Shown: piece after piece, positions 4,183 through 26,129 of the stretch | Layout: each line of letters starts with the position of its first letter | Position numbering within the stretch: position 1 is the first letter of the stretch | Assembly: GCF_000008305.1 (NCBI RefSeq) | Contig: NC_006055.1 | Location: 360,001-392,000, forward strand | Direction: 5' to 3' | Source: Mesoplasma florum L1 | GTDB taxonomy: Bacteria; Bacillota_I; Bacilli_A; Mycoplasmatales; Mycoplasmataceae | Length of the DNA: 32,000 nt | Notes under the pieces: model-generated | The model's input: only the letters and a program-made list of their open reading frames with translations | The model's database searches: none | Told to the model about the DNA's origin: nothing | Translations under genes and position numbers: made by a program

Positions 4183-5592
4183 ATGGAAATTAAAAAACTT
4201 AAAAAATTTGATGATGATTTTTTGTGAGGCGCTTCAATTTCTGCTTTTCAGGCAGAAGGTGCTTCAACAAAAGATGGTAAAGGTTTATCAATTCAAGATG
4301 TTAAAAAAATTAGTGAAAAATATTCTGATTTTTCAGTAGCTGCGGATTTCTATAATAATTACAAAGAGGATATTGCTTTGCTTAAAGAAATGGGATTGTC
4401 ATCTTTCAGATTTTCAATCTCTTGAACCCGTATTATTCCTGATGGAGATGGTGAAATAAATAAAAAAGGAATTATTTTTTATCATAACTTAATAGATGAG
4501 TTAAAGAAAAATGGGATTGAACCAATTGTTACAATATATCATTTTGACTTACCTTTTTCATTACAACAAAAAGGTGGCTGAAGTAATCGTGATATGATAG
4601 TAAAAGCTTTCTTAAAATATTCAAAAGTGTTATTTAATGAATATGCTAAAAAAGTTAAGTATTGGCTAACAATAAATGAACAAAATGTCATGATAATGAT
4701 AGGAAGCAAAATGAAGTTTTTAAATGGAGGAGATAAAAAATTCAATCAAAATGAGCTTTATAATCAATCTCATAATATGTTTATTGCGCAAGCATTAGTT
4801 ATGGAAGAGATGCATAATAATTTTCCTAATTGTTTAATAGCACCTGCTTTAAACATTGTTTCAATTTATCCCAATTCAAATAAACCTCAAGATTACTTAG
4901 CAGCAATGAATGCATCTGTTATGAGAAATTGATATTATTTAGATGCTATTGTTAGAGGCGAATATAACCCAATAATGTATAAATATTTAGAAGACAATAA
5001 TTTTTTACCTGATTTTAGAAAAGGTGATTATGAAATTCTAAAAAAAGCTAAGCCTGATTTTATAGCGTTTAACTATTATACTTCTGCAACAGTAAAAAGT
5101 GAAATTAATAATTTTATTGAAGTTGAAGAATTAATTGATCAACAAAGATTATTTGATGTGCCTGGTATGTTTAGTTATTGTGAAAATCCAAATTTAGAAA
5201 AAACTGAATATGGTTGAGATATTGATTCAACTGGTTTTAGGGTAACAATGAGGGAAATGTATGAAAGATATAGACTACCTTTAATGATTACTGAAAATGG
5301 ATTAGGACATTCAGAGCAATTAAACGAAAATAATACTGTAGATGATGATTATAGAATTCAATATTATGAAAAACATTTAAATGAATTAAGAAAATGTATT
5401 TCAGAAGGAATAAAAATTATCTCATATAATGCTTGAACAGCTATTGATATTGTTTCATCTCATCAAGGTTTTTCAAAAAGATACGGTTTTATTTATGTTG
5501 ATAGAACAGAAAAAGATTTGAAGGAAATGAAAAGATATCCCAAAAAAAGTTTTTATTGATATAAAGAATATATTAAAAAAATAAAATATTAA
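4183..5592 (+). CDS. bglA: GH1 6-phospho-beta-glucosidase (469 aa)
   Basis: ATG at 4183 follows a gagag RBS. The frame-1 pieces (including track ORFs 4594-4932, 4975-5217 and 5248-5436) join across TGA. GH1 signatures are [27 protein letters not shown], the acid/base motif YWLTINEQN and the nucleophile motif ITENGLG. TAA stop at 5590-5592. Confidence 0.9.
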
Positions 5593-5613
5593 TTTTTTAA
5601 TTCTAATTTTAAG

Positions 5614-5653: not shown

Positions 5654-5693
5654 GTTTAAAAGTATGAGAAAATTAACAAAACATGGAGAACAA

Positions 5694-8411
5694 ATGAAAG
5701 AAAAACTATTTACAAATAAAGATGAACAAAAATTACTAGAAGAAATAAATAATGAAATATTAACTTCTAATGAAGTTTATTTAATTTATCCTTTTATATC
5801 TAAAAGTATCCTTAATAAAATAGCTCCAACTTTTGAATTCTGTGCAAAAAACAATATTCAAATTAAAATTATCTCAACAACATTTGATGATCTAGCTCAA
5901 TATAATAATTTGAATGAACTTAAACTATTAGCTGATAAGTATTCTAATATCAAAATAAAAATAGAAGATAACTTAGAAAGAACTAGTGAAAGAATTCATA
6001 TAAAAGCTTCAATTTTTAAACGAAATCATGAATTATCAACTGCAATTATGGGTTCTTCTAATTTAACTGTTAAGGGAATGATTTCTGGAAGAGAATGAAA
6101 TATTAAATTAACAGAACAAAATAATAAAGAATTAATTAATAAAATGATTAATGAATTTGATAATTTATGAAATGAAGAATTTGTTGATTTTTCAAATGAG
6201 TTTGAAAGAGAATTATTAATTCAAAAGATTAAAGAAAACCAGCAAGCAGTAGTTCAATCAAAAATAGAATTATTATCTAATAATTTAACTAAAAAATACT
6301 TATATAAATTTCAAAAAGAAATTATTGATAAACTAAGTTATCGAAGACATATTAATAAAAATAAAAACTTAGTCATTATGGCCACAGGAACAGGCAAAAC
6401 ACTAGTTTCTGCATTTGATTACAAAAGACAATCAGGACAAGCTAAAAAGGACCTTAAAATCCTATTTTTAGCACATCAAAGAGAAATAGTTGACCAAGCA
6501 ATCAAAACTTATCGCCATGTGCTTGAGAATAATAAATTTGGTGAAGTTATGTATGATGGAAGTATTAATAGTGAAAAACCAATTCACCTATTTGCAACAA
6601 TTCAAACCTTGTCCACAAGATTGAATAAATTCAAACCAAACGATTTTGACATTATTGTATATGATGAAGCTCATCATATAGCAGCAAATACTTTTGATAA
6701 AGTATTTAACTATTTTAAACCTCAACAAATCTTAGGTTTAACAGCAACTCCTGAAAGAGAAGACAATAAAGATATTAAAGCATATTTTGATGATGAATAT
6801 GCTACTGAATTAAGACTATGAGATGCTATTGATCAAAAACTATTATGTCCATTTGATTATTATTGTATAGATGATACTAATACTAATTTACAAGGAGTTA
6901 ATTTAAACTCTGATAAAGATATTTTTAAAGTAGTTAACACTGATTCTAGAAATGAATTGTTATTTAAAACAATTGAAAAATATTTAGGTGTTTATGCAAG
7001 ACCAACAGCATTAATCTTTTGTGTTACAGTAGAACATGCTATTAATATATCAAATTACTTAAACTCAAAGAATTTAAAAGCAGAAGTTTTAACTTCACAA
7101 AATACAAAAGATCGTAAAAGAATCTTACATGAATTTAGTACAGGAAGAATTAACTATTTATGTGTTGTTAATATTTTTAATGAAGGAGTAGATATTCCTG
7201 AAATTAATACTATTATTTTGTTAAGACCAACAAATTCTAAAACAGTATATTTACAACAACTTGGTAGAGGTTTAAGAAAAACAGAACTTAAAAATAAACT
7301 AGAAGTATATGATCTAATTTCTAATATAGATAATAAATATGATATTACTTTAGGAATTAGAAATTTATTTAATCCTGCTATTAGAAGTAGTAAGTCAATT
7401 AGTGCTAAAGAAGGTTTACCTTATAATTGCACAATTAACTTAGAAAAGCATACTGAAGAAATTATTATTAACAGTATGAAGAGTTGATATTTAAATAAAA
7501 ACTCAATGAAATCATATATTGTTGAATATTATGAAAGATTTAAAGAAAAAGCTCTTAATAATATATTGAAAGATTATGATTTAACTTTAATAGATTTTTA
7601 TAATAATTTAGATAACTTATTTATACCAATTGCTAAACAAATTAATAACTTTAATCAAAATGAAAATAACACTAATAGAAACAAAAACATTTTAAAACAG
7701 TTTTTATTCTTAAATAATCATAAAATTATTGATTACTTTTATAAAAGACTATCAAACCAATTATCAAGTAATGAAATTAACTTAGACTTAGATAATTTAT
7801 TAATTACTTCTTGTTTATATGAAATAACTAGTTTTGATAAATTTTTAGATATTTATCCTAACTATTTAAAAATTAATGATTTAGTAAAAAACTTTATTGA
7901 TGAGCATAAAGTGATTGTAGAAGAGTTAGTAATGATTCTTAAATACAAATTAGATAATGAAACTTTAATTTTTGAAAACGAGTATGAAATAGGATTGAAT
8001 ATAAATTCAACTTATACTGTAAAACAAGTTTTATCATTAGTTAATCGTACTAACTTTTTACATTATCGAACTGAAATGAAAGTTTTGACATTTCAAGCAG
8101 GGTTTTTAACTTTTGATAACTCAAAACAAATCATTTTAGCTGATGAAGACAGTGATAATTATGGTAAAAAAACTAAATATGATGAATTGAATAATATATT
8201 CTATTGATCTTTACCTGAAAAAATGACAATTAAAAATAAAATAGTTAGTGATTTTGAAAATGAATATATTAAAAAATACTTGTTTATTCAAGATCAACAA
8301 AACGTCAACAAAAAGAACTTATATTTAAAGCTTTATAAATTTGTAGGTATTGGTAAATTTGAAAAAATGTTAATTGATGATGTTCTTACAGCTAAATTTA
8401 AGTTAAAATAA
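5694..8411 (+). CDS. PLD-family (HKD) nuclease domain + SF2 (ResIII/DEAH) helicase + C-terminal DUF3427-like domain, single 905-aa protein
   Basis: Track ORFs 5652-6098, 6378-6821, 6957-7487, 7506-8207 and 8223-8411 share frame 0 and join across TGA; I checked the gaps for real stops. The PLD motif is HIKASIF...GSSNLT (5997-6062). Helicase motif I is MATGTGKT (6378-6401), motif II is DEAHH (6663-6677), motif III is GLTATPER and motif VI is QQLGRGLR. The C-terminus (FYWSLPEK...YLFIQDQ...YKFVGIG) matches my recollection of the DUF3427 pattern. I prefer the ATG at 5694 (ggaga RBS at 5685-5689) over the track's TTG at 5652, which lies inside the upstream terminator. The ATG at 5664 remains an alternative. 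Confidence 0.8.
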
Positions 8412-15131: not shown

Positions 15132-15138
15132 TAGAAAT

Positions 15139-15170
15139 AAAAACTAGAAGATATTAACTTCTAGTTTTTA
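15139..15170. terminator. Bidirectional rho-independent terminator shared by the convergent PTS and HEPN genes
   Basis: 11-bp stem: aaaactagaag (15140-15150) pairs with cttctagtttt (15158-15168). A-rich sequence lies 5' and T-rich sequence 3', so the hairpin works on both strands. The stop codon of the minus-strand gene (15168-15170) overlaps the stem. Confidence 0.75.
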
Positions 15171-15722
15171 TTTATCAAATTTAATTTTTACCTGATCAAC
15201 TAAATCTATTTCATTACCTGCCATATTTATTTCATTTTTAAAATTAGATTGATAGTTTTTAGTTAAGTTATTGTATAAGAAATTGATGTTCATTTGATTT
15301 TCTAAAATATTGTCTAAAATGATTGGTTTAAAGTGAGAAATCTGATTTCTTAATTCACGTATACCATCAAATTCATTACGAGAAATGATAGGTCTATCAT
15401 TGTATACACTTTGAATTTTATTTAAGTTTTTAAAATATAAATTTTGAGCTTCACTCATGTTAACGTTTTCTTTTAAAAAGAATTCTACATCTTTAACATC
15501 ACAATTCATTAAAACAGCTCTTATATATTCTTCAAAGAAACAAATATAACGATAAAGAATATATTTAAGTCTTAGATCATATTGAATAACAGCAGCTATT
15601 TTAGCATATTCATCAGTATTTAAATATTTAGCTATGTATTGATGATATTCAACACCTTTAAGTTCTTTATATTTATTATATGAATCTATTTCATTCTGAT
15701 TTTTAAATTTTATTTCAATCAT
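15168..15722 (-). CDS. HEPN-domain protein, Abi_2 (AbiD/AbiF)-like, 184 aa
   Basis: Intact ORF with a ggaga RBS. The Rx4H HEPN motif is ELRNQISH (R125-H130, nt 15333-15350). The upstream helix QYDLRLKYILYRYICFFEEYIRAVL resembles the conserved FDxxLRxxL...IE...R block of Abi_2 proteins (from memory, not searched). It is shorter than typical AbiD/F proteins of about 300 aa. Confidence 0.6.
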   Translation of the reverse strand: MIEIKFKNQNEIDSYNKYKELKGVEYHQYIAKYLNTDEYAKIAAVIQYDLRLKYILYRYICFFEEYIRAVLMNCDVKDVEFFLKENVNMSEAQNLYFKNLNKIQSVYNDRPIISRNEFDGIRELRNQISHFKPIILDNILENQMNINFLYNNLTKNYQSNFKNEINMAGNEIDLVDQVKIKFDK

Positions 15723-15788
15723 AGTATCTCCGATATCATAATTATCACATATTAAAACAAAAGTAGATTAATCTTTTAAATAAAGTAA

Positions 15789-15794
15789 TATAAT
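15789..15794 (+). promoter_or_regulatory. Candidate -10 box (TATAAT) for the TIR-like/TM gene pair
   Basis: Exact TATAAT lies 23 nt upstream of the ATG at 15817, in the 94-bp divergent intergenic region. Such matches are common in AT-rich DNA. Confidence 0.3.
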
Positions 15795-15816
15795 AAAATA
15801 AAAAATGGAGGAATAT

Positions 15817-16365
15817 ATGAATAAAAAAGTTTTTATTTCTTATTGGCATTCTGGTCATCAAATACAAAAAGATGAATTAGAAAAAACAGTAAGAGCTTCT
15901 AGAAATATAAATAATTCTGTTCACATTGGAGATATTAATGAAAATCTACCAACTGAAAGAATTTATCAAATAATAAGAGATGATTATTTAAAAGATAGTC
16001 AGGTAACAATTGTTCTTCTAGGTTTACATACAAATCACCGTAAGCATATAGATAGAGAAATTGCTTCATCTATTAGAGAAACATTTTTAAATCCAAGAAA
16101 TGGGCTTGTTATTCTTGTTATGCCTGAGATGGTGCCTTATGTTTCAGCAGGGACATGAAATAGTGAAAGAATATGTGGACCCAGAATTTCAAAAAATATA
16201 AAAAATAACTATGCAGTTTTTGATTATTATCACAACGTAATTAATAACCCTTCAAAATTAAACGAATTAATTGAAAAAGCTTATTTAAATAGAAATAATG
16301 TACTACCCAATAATTCTGATCCTTACAGAAGTAACAATACAAGCTGTACAATATGTGGGAGATAA
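15817..16365 (+). CDS. TIR-like domain protein, ThsB/DUF1863-like (182 aa)
   Basis: ATG at 15817 lies 5 nt after the ggagg RBS; the track start at 15805 overlaps the RBS. One in-frame TGA at 16156. The N-terminal strand KKVFISYWH and the core SQVTIVLLGLHTNHRKHIDREIASSI match the pattern xVFISY...VTxVLIGxxTxxRxWVxYEIxxSI that I recall for DUF1863/ThsB TIR-like proteins. This includes a Glu (E81, nt 16057-16059) at the position of the catalytic glutamate. TAA stop at 16363-16365. Confidence 0.7.
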
Positions 16366-16368
16366 AAG

Positions 16369-17202
16369 ATGAAAATAGAGATTAATAATTTATGATATTT
16401 AGTAATAATTTTAATTATTATATTATTTTTTATTTTTATTCCTTTAATAATAAAAAGTATTAAACTAAAATTAAAAAATAATAAAAACTTAAAACAAACT
16501 AAACAATCATTTAAAAATCTTTTAGATAATAAAGATTTAAGTTTAAATAATAAAATCTTTTTTAAAAGAGAAGATAAAAAATTAAATTTACATCTTAAAG
16601 AACTTATTGGTTCAAGTTCACTTTCAAGTTCAGTTAAAACAAATTTAGATTTTAAAATAGTTACATTTGAGATTCAATCAAATTTACCTGAAAAAATAAA
16701 TAATAGACAAATTTCTTGAAAAGCATTCACAGCGATTATAACTTCTGTTATAACAAATGATTCAAGAGGCGATACTGCAGAAGCAGTTAATTCAATTTAT
16801 CAATTATTTAAATTTTTAAAAAAACTTGTAATTGAAAGTGAGAATTCACCAATCATTCCATCAATGTTACTAAAAATAATAAATACAGATTTAAGGCCAA
16901 TATTAACTTTTACAAGAAGTTTTATGTTTTCTGATGCAGAAGGAAAAAATAAAGTTAAAAAAGATTTTGAAAACCAAGAAGAACAATTTTGAAATAAAAT
17001 TAATGATTTAAAAATTACTTTATTAGAGAGAAATGATTTAAAAATTTTATGTTTATTTTCTCAAAATTACATAACAACTGATGAAATTTATAATTTACTA
17101 AATATTAGCGATGAGTTGAAAAAGCAACTTATGTCTAAAAATAAAGAATCAAAAAAAATTATAGACGAAGTTGAAAAAGAAATAAAAAATTCAAAAATTT
17201 AA
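16369..17202 (+). CDS. Single-pass membrane protein of unknown function (277 aa), probably translationally coupled to the TIR-like gene; absent from the supplied ORF track
   Basis: ATG at 16369 lies 3 nt after the TIR stop. Frame 1 stays open to the TAA at 17200-17202, with three in-frame TGA codons (16393, 16717, 16990). The N-terminal TM helix is WYLVIILIIILFFIFIPLII, followed by a K-rich juxtamembrane stretch. The C-terminal region of about 240 aa contains no motif I recognise, including SIR2, Macro or SLOG signatures. A terminator follows immediately. Confidence 0.65.
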
Positions 17203-17215
17203 GTAAATTTTATAA

Positions 17216-17247
17216 ACAAAGAACTTATTTAAACAAGTTCTTTTTTT
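17216..17247 (+). terminator. Rho-independent terminator after the TIR-like/TM pair
   Basis: 9-bp stem: aaagaactt (17218-17226) pairs with aagttcttt (17235-17243). The loop is 8 nt and the T-run extends to 17247. Confidence 0.75.
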
Positions 17248-17295
17248 GTTTGAGATTTATTTGTTATAAAATATATAAATAAAAAGGGTGAGAAG

Positions 17296-19527
17296 ATGAA
17301 CGAATTATTAACTTTTAGAGGATATGTAGTTAAATATGGTTTTTCAAATGATGCTGGTTGAGGAACTGGTACATTTGCTAGTGAAGATAATTTAAAACAA
17401 CATATGAGTATTAAAGGATCAATAACTAGTATGGATAAAAAAACTTTATATGAAATAACTGGATATTTTGAAGAACATCCTCGTTATGGTAAAAGTTTTA
17501 ATGTTCAAACTTATCGAAAAGCACCTATTCACTCAACTAAAGAACAAATTAAATTTTTAGCAGGTCCTGCATTTCCAGGTGTAGGAGAAAAAACAGCTGA
17601 AATTATAATAAATCACTTAGGTGATAAAGCAATTACACAATTAGTTAAAAATATTGAATTATTAAATGAAATACCAGGACTTAATGCTATTTATATCCCA
17701 ATTATTAAAAAAGGAATAGAAGAGAATATCAGACAAGAAGGTCAAGAAAGATTAAGATATATCTTTTTTGAAAATAATCTTAAAACTTCAATATTAGATT
17801 GAATGGATAATCACTTTGATCAAGATAATGACATTATTGAAAGCATTTTTTCAAATTCATTTTTATCTTTTGCAAAAGATAAAGAAATTGCTTCATTTGA
17901 AGAACTTGATAAAGTTGCTGTTCATTTTGGATTAGAATTACACTCACCTGAAAGAATAGCTTATTGAGCTTGAAAGTTAGCTGATGATTTTTTATTTGCA
18001 TCTGGAGATACTTATACAAACAAAGATTATCTTTCAAGAAGTTTAATGCGTAAGTTAAAAATACAAGATACCGAATTACTTTTTGAAGGTATTTTATATG
18101 CTAAAGAAAAAGGTATTTTAAAATTAACTAAAAATCGTATTTATACAGAAGAATCTTGAAGAGAAGAGCAAATTATCGCAGATAATATAATAAAGCTTAA
18201 TATACCCACTAAAAATGCCAATAAAGAAGGTATTTCATGAGAAATAAATCAAATTGAAGAAGAAATAGCTTATGAAAATAAAATTAAAGATTTTAAATTT
18301 GATGAAAAACAAAGAGAAGCATTAGAATTATTTGCCAATAATAAATTATCTATTATTACTGGTGGACCAGGAACTGGTAAAACAACATTGATTAAAGGAA
18401 TAGTTAAATTGTTTAATCGTATGAGTGGTACTGAGGACTATGCAATAGCAACACCAACCGGAAGAGCTGCTGCTAGAATTAGAGAAACATACAAGAAATC
18501 ATATGCAACAACAATACACAAACTATTAGAAGCAAAAGAACTTAATAAGTTTCAAATTACACAAAATAATCCATTAAATCAAAAACTTGTAATTTTAGAT
18601 GAATGCTCAATGATAGATAATAAATTATTTGCAAGTTTTATACAATCTTGTGATCGAGTTAGAAAAGTAGTTTTAGTTGGTGATGCTAATCAATTACCAA
18701 GTGTAGGGTATGGAAATACATTTGCTGATTTATTAGAACTAGATTTTTTAAAAACAATTAAACTAGATACAGTTCATAGACAAAAGAATGGCAATGGTAT
18801 TGTTGATTTAGCTTATAAAGTGTTAAATGAGACATTAGAGATAAGTGATTTAGAATCTATGAGTAATGTTGAAATAAACTTTGATTATAATAATCAAAAC
18901 ACCATGAACAAAGTTACTGAAATTGTTGGTCAACATTGAGATGATTTAGAAAAAAGAGCTAATCATTTACAAGTTATTTGTCCAATGTATGGTGGTGAAT
19001 TAGGAATTGATGAAATCAATGCTCAAATCCAAAATGAATTTAATGAAAATGTTAAAGATAAAAAGAAAGTCTATGATCGAGGAGATTATCGATTTGTAGT
19101 TGAAGATAAAATCATGTTTTTAAAAAATGACACTGATTTAGATTTAGCTAATGGTGATGTAGGTAAAATAATTAAAATTAATTATGATGCTATAGGTAGA
19201 TTAAAAGATGTTTTAACTGAATTTAATGATAAAGAGATATTATTACAACCAAAAAACTTTAGTGATGTAAAATTATCTTATGCAACTAGTGTGCATAAGA
19301 CTCAAGGAAGTGAATATAATAATGTTTTATTAGTTATAGATAGTCCTAAATTTAATTCAGGCTTTATTAATAAAACATTAATTTACACAGCAGTAACAAG
19401 AGCAAAAGATAAAATAGTTATTTTAGGTGATAGTGATTTATTCTTTAATGCAATTAAAATAACACCACCTAGAAGAAATACAACACTTATTGAAACTATG
19501 CTAGAAAAGAGAGAAACAAATGGGTAA
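17296..19527 (+). CDS. recD2: RecD2-type SF1B ATP-dependent DNA helicase (743 aa)
   Basis: ATG at 17296 follows the RBS aagggtgag. The frame-1 pieces (track ORFs 17404-17802, 18388-18939 and 18985-19527) join across TGA. There is an N-terminal OB-like region and a HhH segment (AGPAFPGVGEKTAEII). The Walker A motif is ITGGPGTGKTT, with LVILDECSMID, VLVGDANQLPSVG, the SH3-like insert DKIMFLKNDTDLDLANGDVG and YATSVHKTQGSEY...YTAVTRAK. Confidence 0.9.
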
Positions 19528-24494: not shown

Positions 24495-24971
24495 GCAAAA
24501 CAATAAATTAAAGGTTGAAAAGTATTAAAGCTAATAAAATTTTTCTAATAATGGGAAACTCACATTTTTTAAAACTATTTTACTTTTAAGAATTTATAAT
24601 AAATAAGAGTTTCTTAATTCGTTTCTTAATTCATTTAGAAGTAAGTCAATTATTATACTAATATAAAAAATTCAACATATTTATATTCTTTTCGTATTTC
24701 ATTACATTTAAGATTATAAATTGATTCCTGTTTAACGATTTATTTTCTCAATCAAGATTTATAATTATTTAATAAAATTATATTTACTTTAAATTAAAGT
24801 ATCAATAAAATTTAAAGTAAAGTAAAAAAATATGTTGTAAAAAATTAGACAAGAAAATATTAGATAAAATTATATATTTTTTCTTGCTATATTTTTTAAA
24901 ATAGTGACTTTAAACTTACAAAAATATTTTAAGTTAACGAATAAAATAATAATTAAAAAAAGGAAAAATAT

Positions 24972-25862
24972 ATGAAAAAAGAATTTAACAAAGAAATCAT
25001 AAAATTATCACCTAATAGAATAAATACGTTATTAGTAATTCAAAATAATCATTTTTTTGAAAGTGAGATTTTAAATAGACTAATTGACTTTATTGAAAAA
25101 ATGCAAGTTTTTGAAAAAGTTTTTGAAAATGTTTTTGAAAAACATTATTCTTTGCATAAATTAATTAAACAATCATTTAGTTATTGCAATTCTTTATTTA
25201 TTTTAAGGTCAGCAATAGAAAGTAATAAAATTGATGAAAAACTATTGTTTGAAAATTTTAGCAGTTTAACTTGATTATATTGTAAAAACATAATTTTCTT
25301 AATTAATGAAGAAAATGAAAATAATAAAGAAAAAAATTATAAATTAGGAAGTGATTTTTTAGAAGCTAATATTAATTTTTTAAGTTTTTTAAGAAATTTA
25401 TTTTCTCATTTCTACTTAGATTCAATAACTATTCATAAACTTTTAAATTCTATATATGAATTTAATTTTTATAATAATAAAATTATTAATGATTTAGTTA
25501 ATTCAAAACCAAATAAGTTATGTATGTTTGATTTGCTAAACTCAAATAAAAAAACAATAACACTTTGTAAAATACAAAATAAATATTTGGATGAGGCAAT
25601 TTTAAATTTTAATAAAAATGATTTTGATGAAAATATGGAAGAAGTTTTATATGTAAAAGACGTAGATAAAATAAGAATTAAACTTTATGATGAAATCTTT
25701 AAGAATTTTCAAGAAAATAAAATAAATATTTTTAGTAATCCAGATCACTGAATAACATATTTAAGATTAAGTGATAATTATTTTTTAAGAATAGAAATGT
25801 ACCCTTTTATTCATTCATTAATTGAATATTTTGAAATCTTTTATAATATTTTGAAAAAATAA
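24972..25862 (+). CDS. HEPN-domain (Rx4H) Abi-like protein, 296 aa
   Basis: Track ORFs 24972-25274 and 25524-25751 are in frame 0 and join across TGA codons at 25272 and 25749. TAA stop at 25860-25862. The HEPN motif is FLRNLFSH (R141-H146, nt 25392-25409), resembling the LRNxxxH motif of the 15168-15722 protein. It is otherwise a helical, low-complexity, N/K-rich sequence. Confidence 0.5.
25117..25152 (+). repeat. 3 x 12-bp in-frame tandem repeat (gtttttgaaaaa/t) encoding VFEK-VFEN-VFEK
   Basis: Read directly from the sequence, inside the HEPN ORF. Confidence 0.85.
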
Positions 25863-26129
25863 AGTTGACTATAAGTTAAATAATTAATGAAAACAATAAA
25901 GTGAATAAGTTAATATTTTAGAAAATATGTTAAAGAAAAATAAGAAAAGTAATGCAATATTCTATTGCATATCTTATTTAAAGTAGATTTAATTACTAGA
26001 ACTTGCATGAATGAAAAAGAAATTAAGCATCATAGTAAATAAAAATTTAGTTATTTTCTAAATAGTTTTATTAACTATCTTTCTTTTATGAAAAATACCA
26101 ATAAAATAAAAATTAAATTATTTATAGTT

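Follow-up and report, generated by a model that had tools for sequence, protein, structure and literature searches.

The window analysed in this study is a stretch of 32,000 nucleotides (nt) from Mesoplasma florum L1, which has about 24% G+C and is read with genetic code 4; TGA is a sense codon there, so the open reading frames (ORFs) were called with table 4. Coordinates are given as positions in this window, and numbers such as L101 denote fetched loci. Three adjacent genes are the subject of the present report. Gene A (15168-15722, minus strand) encodes an Abi_2-like protein of 184 amino acids (aa) with a HEPN motif; thsB (15817-16365, plus strand) encodes a TIR-like protein of 182 aa, a predicted signal generator, with one TGA codon read as Trp; and a thsG-like gene (16369-17202, plus strand) for a predicted effector of 277 aa has its ATG 3 nt past the thsB stop. 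An initial annotation, made from the DNA letters, had placed the three ORFs at the same positions, with the same lengths and the same 3-nt gap, and calling with table 4 confirmed it; AAT75676, AAT75677 and AAT75678 of M. florum L1 are exact matches of the three proteins. The segment 15753-17250, which carries thsB and the thsG-like gene, is probably a self-contained two-gene anti-phage operon of the type VI kind of Thoeris, acquired by the L1 lineage between gene A and recD2.

The operon has its own expression signals. The start of thsB was set at 15817 and not at 15805 because a GGAGG ribosome-binding site (RBS; 15807-15811, plus strand) sits 5 nt upstream of this ATG, and the public annotation likewise gives 182 aa. 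A GGGAGA Shine-Dalgarno-like motif for the thsG-like gene lies on the plus strand inside the 3' end of thsB, and a candidate -10 box, TATAAT (15789-15794, plus strand), can be read within the inserted segment; it was not called by the consensus promoter scan, which requires a -35 match. Folding energy gave two hairpins. The left one (15135-15173, both strands) is a bidirectional terminator with a perfect 16-bp stem, -16.6 and -16.5 kcal/mol and z of -6.7 and -7.4 on the two strands, and U-runs on both sides. The right one (17212-17249, plus strand) is the intrinsic terminator of the thsB-thsG operon, with the stem GAACTT.../...AAGTTC followed by T7, a 9-bp core, -9.5 kcal/mol and z = -2.3; it precedes the conserved promoter and RBS region of recD2, whose leader is conserved from about 17259. 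The consensus terminator scan, which demands at least 3 G-C pairs, missed both, and no RNA family was found by an Rfam search across the whole window. The two hairpins had been proposed as the limits of one unit at 15168-17247; both are real, but the left one ends the convergent phosphotransferase system (PTS) EIIABC gene (plus strand) and gene A (minus strand) and is not the boundary of a mobile segment.

The 182-aa protein matches PF08937 (ThsB_TIR) with 63 bits (E=3.6e-17, cut-off 21.2) over profile positions 1-97 of 100, and the PADLOC ThsB models match it weakly. Its Glu81, encoded by the GAA codon at 16057-16059 (plus strand), is the predicted catalytic glutamate of the TIR domain; it is invariant in the alignment of a six-member TIR subfamily and is one of the 5 invariant columns, I82 being another, across the published ThsB TIR domains of types I, III, VI, IX and XI. 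The corresponding Glu is catalytic in B. cereus ThsB. Judged by its sequence, the protein is a bona fide ThsB-type TIR, and the earlier assignment, with Glu81 at the catalytic position, is borne out.

The wider family of this protein leads to type VI Thoeris. Yirmiya et al. (bioRxiv, December 2025) describe 11 validated and 29 putative Thoeris types, among which type VI consists of ThsB and ThsG ('DUF6650', sometimes with N-terminal transmembrane (TM) helices), uses the cyclic ADP-ribose isomer 2'cADPR as its signal and has a ThsG modelled as a hexameric tube with basic pockets between the protomers; 255 type VI operons were counted, two of them in archaea (doi 10.64898/2025.12.03.692087). In the same work cells expressing ThsG were arrested by exogenous 2'cADPR, and 2 of 5 type VI systems gave no detectable 2'cADPR (doi 10.64898/2025.12.03.692087). 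Against the validated type VI ThsB Ga0209396_100023224, a member of TIR cluster 2741407742 in Table S1 of that paper (doi 10.64898/2025.12.03.692087), the M. florum TIR reaches 36% identity over 130 aa (E 2e-24). A scan with one genome per species gave more than 526 TIR relatives at about 40% identity in bacterial and archaeal phyla, and the signature motifs used for their retrieval are shared with the validated type VI ThsB. The nearest relatives, 43-52% identical, lie on other low-G+C contigs read with table 4.

This one TIR clade pairs with several distinct effector types, namely ThsG, TIR-SLOG and CMP hydrolase. Other successors were also seen: in L039, L046, L048, L049, L062, L071 and L077 (about 4516-5600) the TIR is followed instead by a full-length HMUDK_hel protein of about 350 aa (5-hmdU DNA kinase helical domain, E 1e-114), and elsewhere by a MazG + MazG_C protein or a TIR + SLOG protein (L080; L029, L089). 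The HMUDK_hel and MazG pairings may represent further effector or partner types. On the Aureispira plasmid NZ_CP133672 (L099, 1-3970) three consecutive TIR-domain genes of different clades precede a single ThsG gene of the class called Y below; one of the three is related to the Bacillus-type type VI ThsB and another belongs to the M. florum TIR clade and has an N-terminal extension.

The 277-aa protein was more difficult to place. It has one TM helix at residues 10-28 (16396-16452, plus strand), with a mean Kyte-Doolittle value of 3.44 over 19 residues against at most 1.05 in all other windows, and the AlphaFold2 (AF2) monomer model has a helix at residues 3-36. The model is all-alpha, with a predicted local distance difference test score (pLDDT) of 79-94 over residues about 110-260, which form a ThsG-like (DUF6650-like) domain (16696-17148, plus strand) with the conserved columns W117, T125, E138-A139, S142, N172, R176-P177 and L179; the protein also has a long linker of low confidence and a C-terminal coiled extension. 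The all-alpha fold therefore excludes the Macro, SIR2 and SLOG folds, and the comparison with Pfam, NCBIfam and PADLOC likewise gave no family match, SIR2, SLOG and Macro included. The single N-terminal helix, the missing signatures of these three domains and the absence of a SIR2-SLOG or TM-Macro ThsA were thus correctly foreseen. A PDB fold search returned zero matches, a word-indexed homology search found the protein itself alone, and exhaustive phmmer gave 10 representatives in 1.84 billion sequences, all of low complexity and AT-rich.

The relatives were found by anchoring on the conserved TIR alignment and then profiling the neighbours of the TIR genes. Relatives of the 277-aa protein adjoin a ThsB_TIR gene in all six contexts examined (L003, L007/8, L009, L010, L012), at unrelated chromosomal sites, in either gene order and with or without a TM helix, and this conserved adjacency upholds the proposed coupling of the TIR to the membrane protein downstream. 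The other Mollicute TIR-ThsG pairs likewise occupy unrelated sites (dnaN/thyA, an ABC transporter, HNH), and on a standard-code contig with 43% G+C a TIR gene (39% identical) is directly followed by the gene of a soluble 174-aa relative. In a sample of 80 genome and 80 metagenome TIR loci, a search with a hidden Markov model (HMM) built from the partner proteins placed a homologue right next to the TIR gene in about 37 of the 80 genome loci, with E down to 8e-27; when the two genes had to be on the same strand with a gap of at most 150 bp, a ThsG-like partner stood beside the TIR in 31 of 80 genome loci and 51 of 80 metagenome loci.

The partners fall into four classes: M, the Mollicute proteins, most with a single TM helix; X, soluble and of about 160 aa; Y, with one TM helix and the domain, about 220 aa; and Z, the E. 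coli type VI effector with its Listeria, Priestia and L. plantarum counterparts. None of these classes was matched by the Pfam, NCBIfam or PADLOC libraries. Class Y includes the validated effector Ga0209396_100023225, whose gene was retrieved on scaffold Ga0209396_1000232 (L101:3022-3657). A profile built from Mollicute proteins only matches this effector with E 1.9e-9 and 24.6 bits, the best of 5000 shuffles reaching 13.7, and the class X and E. coli-class profiles match it with E 2.5e-17 and E 9e-15, respectively; the real scores were not attained by any of the 5000 shuffles. Taken singly, the M. florum sequence reaches 29.2 bits with an independent profile, that of class X (best shuffle 10.3). 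Profile-profile comparison by hhalign, in local mode with TM regions trimmed, joins M to X (97.2%, E 3.7e-11) and X to Y (97.3%, E 2e-11), and the chain to the validated ThsG holds at 97-98% per step with reversed-sequence controls below 1%. The motif register is constant through the M-X-Y-Z profile alignments, as may be seen from the motifs of class M (AW..f..L.TSV / EAv.SI..IF / iiN.kiRPIL), class X (AAWeLYvELlTRI / ALdSvYsLF / VLNQ.vRPFtAKWH) and class Y (AhrIYiEL.TRK / EiY.SWY.lF / ILN.GLRpHLT). The protein had seemed an orphan because of its composition and divergence, and anchoring on its TIR partner resolved its identity.

When compared with the described Thoeris types, the M. florum pair is closest to type VI. 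It is a two-gene operon with a TIR of the same clade and tight stop-start coupling, its effector is all-alpha and homologous by profile to validated ThsG, and the N-terminal TM helix is found likewise in the validated Gammaproteobacteria and E. coli systems. It differs in that the effector is extremely divergent, AT-rich and in code 4, with about 18% identity to class X in the profile alignment; in that its helical domain is nearest to the soluble class X although a single TM helix, as in class Y, is present; and in having a Mollicute as host, a group that the searchable parts of the published tables do not list. Type II Thoeris (ThsB + TM-Macro, with His-ADPR as signal) shares with it the combination of a TIR and a membrane-anchored effector that presumably kills through the membrane, but the M. 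florum effector has no Macro domain, being without such a Pfam match and all-alpha instead of alpha/beta, and the TIR is of a different clade. Type I Thoeris (ThsB + SIR2-SLOG ThsA, with 3'cADPR) has in common with it a PF08937 ThsB in which the catalytic Glu is conserved, and the division into signal generator and effector, whereas the M. florum effector lacks SIR2 and SLOG and is a small membrane protein, not an NADase.

Two sets of related loci were recorded alongside. On the chromosome of E. coli A14 (L096, 1770-3118) a type VI pair, effector first and then TIR with overlapping stop and start, is cargo of a P2-like prophage, next to its portal and terminase genes; the pair occurs in 42 of 5426 complete E. 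coli genomes, and RefSeq labels its effector a hypothetical protein. In archaeal metagenome-assembled genomes of Thermoplasmata, Methanoregula, Methanophagales, Methanosarcinaceae and Promethearchaeota/Asgard (L013, L037, L053, L082, L083) a TIR of this clade is directly followed by a ThsG-like gene, and such cases in the 80-locus sample outnumber the two archaeal type VI systems reported.

The pair is a recent addition to its site on the evidence of its distribution. The window is 99.3% identical to M. florum strain CP023736, and the TIR and 277-aa proteins were found in two M. florum genomes only, L1 and CP023736; neither ORF is disrupted in either strain, and each shows a single conservative substitution. 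In M. entomophilum the site is empty: by blastn the window intervals 15165-15752 and 17222-18996 map 8 bp apart, and M. chauliocola is similar. Comparison with the empty sites defines an inserted segment at about 15753-17221, some 1.47 kb, which holds thsB, the thsG-like gene, their upstream region and most of the terminator; its right edge is uncertain, up to about 17258. The variable part is thus smaller than the 15168-17247 block first regarded as one unit. In M. entomophilum, M. chauliocola and M. florum CP022506 gene A and recD2 are immediate, divergent neighbours separated by about 110 bp of intergenic DNA, and parsimony favours a gain in the L1 lineage by insertion between these two genes. 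The in-frame TGA codons, together with the closest TIR relatives on low-G+C table-4 contigs, point to a Mollicute as the probable donor. Flanking direct, inverted, terminal or target-site repeats were sought at the segment and none was found, and a transposon origin was rejected for want of terminal and target-site repeats.

The surroundings of recD2 vary again in M. florum CP022506 (L180, 734-1732 and 5706-8109). There the MMSYN1_0478-family gene has a DUF4238 gene downstream of it, and the GntR-GH31-PTS sugar operon of L1 is replaced by a HAAS-like/PadR pair with a 319-aa ORF. On either side of gene A and recD2 lies a hotspot of gene turnover.

Gene A has a different history. Orthologues of 77-95% identity are present in many M. 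florum strains, M. entomophilum, M. tabanidae, M. coleopterae, M. melaleucae and M. chauliocola; 13 variants were counted across the first four of these species, while M. melaleucae and M. chauliocola form separate clusters. At least 5 Mesoplasma species keep the gene in synteny with recD2, as do many M. florum strains that lack the TIR and TM genes, and among the fetched loci it occurs without TIR/ThsG in L002, L004-L006 and L180, adjacent to recD2 in L002, L004 and L180. The family HMM matched none of the 3673 ORFs of 179 fetched loci beyond its own orthologues in the Mesoplasma loci L001, L002 and L004-L006, and a gene A-like neighbour is absent from the other Mollicute TIR-ThsG pairs. Gene A is therefore an older resident, vertically inherited and not a Thoeris component, and the linkage of the HEPN-like gene to the system, as first suggested, is not sustained.

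As regards its family, the reading of gene A as an Abi_2-like HEPN protein is no more than plausible. RNQISH (R125, N126, H130) is invariant in 10 family sequences down to 46% identity; the match to Pfam Abi_2 (PF07751) is 14.3 bits, below the gathering score of 25.6, and all 10 homologues match sub-threshold over most of the profile, with a best E of 0.0035. Like the AbiD/AbiF-like HEPN proteins of Abi_2, gene A is all-alpha in its AF2 model, which is of moderate quality (pLDDT 67), and has the invariant R-x4-H near its C-terminal third; unlike them it is sub-cut-off, shorter than typical, without a structural match in the PDB (best Foldseek E 7.2, and nothing by sequence profile search), and core and syntenic in the M. 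florum clade, not island-borne. It may be an Abi-type defence gene in its own right. The scaffold of the validated type VI system has, immediately 5' of ThsB, two ORFs (L101:1201-1773 and 1799-2380) with the R-x4-H motifs RNSKAH and RNEFAH, and the ORF at 1799-2380 matches Pfam MtlR with E 1.2e-6; they are not homologous to gene A, yet a HEPN-like motif gene beside type VI Thoeris recurs.

The working of the M. florum pair can be sketched from its relatives, and we infer in this way the identity of the signal, the oligomerisation, the membrane disruption and the defence phenotype. Infection would be sensed by ThsB, as family membership and residue conservation suggest, and ThsB would then convert NAD+ through Glu81 into a cyclic ADP-ribose isomer, which is 2'cADPR in the closest validated relative. 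The 277-aa protein, probably as an oligomer, would bind the signal with its all-alpha ThsG domain, and the TM-anchored effector would compromise the membrane and bring about growth arrest (abortive infection), both by analogy with validated type VI. The identity of the signal is the least secure step, because two of the five type VI systems tested made no detectable 2'cADPR.

Several observations weigh against the assignment to type VI. Direct profile comparison of class M with class Z, the E. coli-type ThsG, was not significant (0.6%). The single M. florum sequence is borderline against the validated class-Y profile (9.9 bits, with 2 of 5000 shuffles as good), and therefore its ThsG membership rests on the family profiles and the transitive chain. 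PF20355 (DUF6650) was unmatched at E up to 10 by all 10 family members and likewise by the class X and Y representatives, and the link to Pfam-positive DUF6650 proteins was not reached, the plasmid neighbours of Bacillus-type type VI TIRs being other genes or another class-Y ThsG. To our knowledge there is also no known phage of M. florum. The Pfam negative is uninformative for the TM-bearing branch, because the validated E. coli-type and Gammaproteobacteria ThsG-TM effectors also miss PF20355. Even validated ThsG is without a model in PADLOC 2.0, in keeping with the expectation that standard pipelines would miss the system. The failed database, fold and word-indexed searches and the missing direct link to E. 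coli ThsG would be expected if the 277-aa protein were a genuinely new class of Thoeris effector, unrelated to those described. We consider this quite improbable, since negatives that validated ThsG shares for Pfam and PADLOC carry no information, the family profiles tie the protein to validated ThsG with clean shuffled and reversed controls, and its TIR partner is of the same clade as the validated type VI ThsB. By its family profiles the protein is a very divergent member of the ThsG family and not the unassigned or new effector class that the initial annotation had envisaged, the type VI system having been published in December 2025. Of the findings named there as able to overturn its claim of novelty, a match to a known Thoeris effector module was obtained, though not to Macro, and one of the three genes proved core and syntenic; the TIR match is significant and the other two genes are accessory.

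The remaining alternatives concern the roles of the genes. A composite system, in which the TIR signal or the TM protein controls the divergent HEPN RNase-type protein, is suggested by the adjacency of the three genes, their common 94-bp divergent region, the invariant RNQISH and the two R-x4-H ORFs just 5' of the validated ThsB (L101:1201-2380). Its distribution strongly disfavours it and makes it very improbable: gene A stands beside recD2 in many genomes without TIR/ThsG, its HMM matches no ORF in any other TIR locus, the other Mollicute pairs lie at unrelated sites without such a neighbour, and the L101 ORFs are unrelated to it. Many bacterial TIRs are NADase effectors, and the TIR might itself deplete NAD+ while the membrane protein serves as sensor, regulator or anchor. 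Yirmiya et al. caution that a TIR could be the effector in unverified configurations (doi 10.64898/2025.12.03.692087). This seems quite unlikely when the closest validated relatives make a signal, when exogenous 2'cADPR arrests their ThsG-expressing cells, and when the clade is paired interchangeably with ThsG, TIR-SLOG and CMP hydrolase, as is typical of a signal generator. Finally, the confinement of the pair to two closely related genomes, in a host with few known parasites and no phage known to us, would suit an inactive relic or a non-defence module. That reading has very little probability in our view: both ORFs remain intact in both strains, the catalytic Glu and the family-conserved residues are kept, the operon has its own RBSs and terminator, and a type IV restriction enzyme is encoded among the neighbouring genes.

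Further observations were made elsewhere in the window. At 5664-8411 (plus strand) a 915-aa protein with PLD-nuclease and DEAD/ResIII helicase domains matches the PADLOC model of type IV methyl-directed restriction (mREase_IV, E 1e-101), and this gene, the Abi_2-like gene and the Thoeris pair make up a loose defence or variable region from 5.6 to 17.2 kb which is split by the sugar operon. A second segment of 1.6 kb (24495-26129), between the gene of a 306-aa membrane protein and dinB, is present in L1 and missing from strain CP023736; it has the lowest G+C of the window (17% at 25-26 kb). Its ORF at 24972-25862 (plus strand) encodes a 296-aa protein with an RNLFSH (R-x4-H) motif and without a Pfam or PADLOC match, and a test of its relatedness to the 184-aa HEPN-like protein detected none.

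The M. florum pair appears to be a very divergent member of type VI Thoeris and the first Thoeris noted in Mollicutes; no earlier report was found in the searchable literature, and the searchable parts of the tables of Yirmiya et al. hold no Mesoplasma or Mycoplasma entries. The reach of ThsG and type VI Thoeris would be extended to this group, and a near-minimal code-4 Mollicute that serves as a synthetic-biology chassis is predicted to carry a complete, strain-variable defence system of the signalling type, which is invisible to standard-code and HMM-based pipelines. For chassis engineering the pair counts as accessory DNA that can be dispensed with, and its insertion site has been precisely mapped. 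The use of a conserved partner, here the TIR, as an anchor, followed by profiling of its neighbours, can identify divergent proteins that appear to be orphans. The ThsG-like family also appears, from the TIR loci sampled, to be considerably larger, and commoner in archaea, than reported or detected by current models. Class X genes adjoin TIR genes of this clade in numerous bacterial phyla and at least 5 archaeal lineages, and the class is undetected by the current Pfam, PADLOC and NCBIfam models. It is conceivable, if rather doubtful at present, that the Mollicute proteins and class X form a distinct ThsG-like branch, possibly answering some different product of the TIR instead of 2'cADPR, as may be hinted by the two type VI systems in which none was made (doi 10.64898/2025.12.03.692087). 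Such a branch would be a separate Thoeris subtype, and M. florum L1 would then offer a minimal-genome host for studying it.

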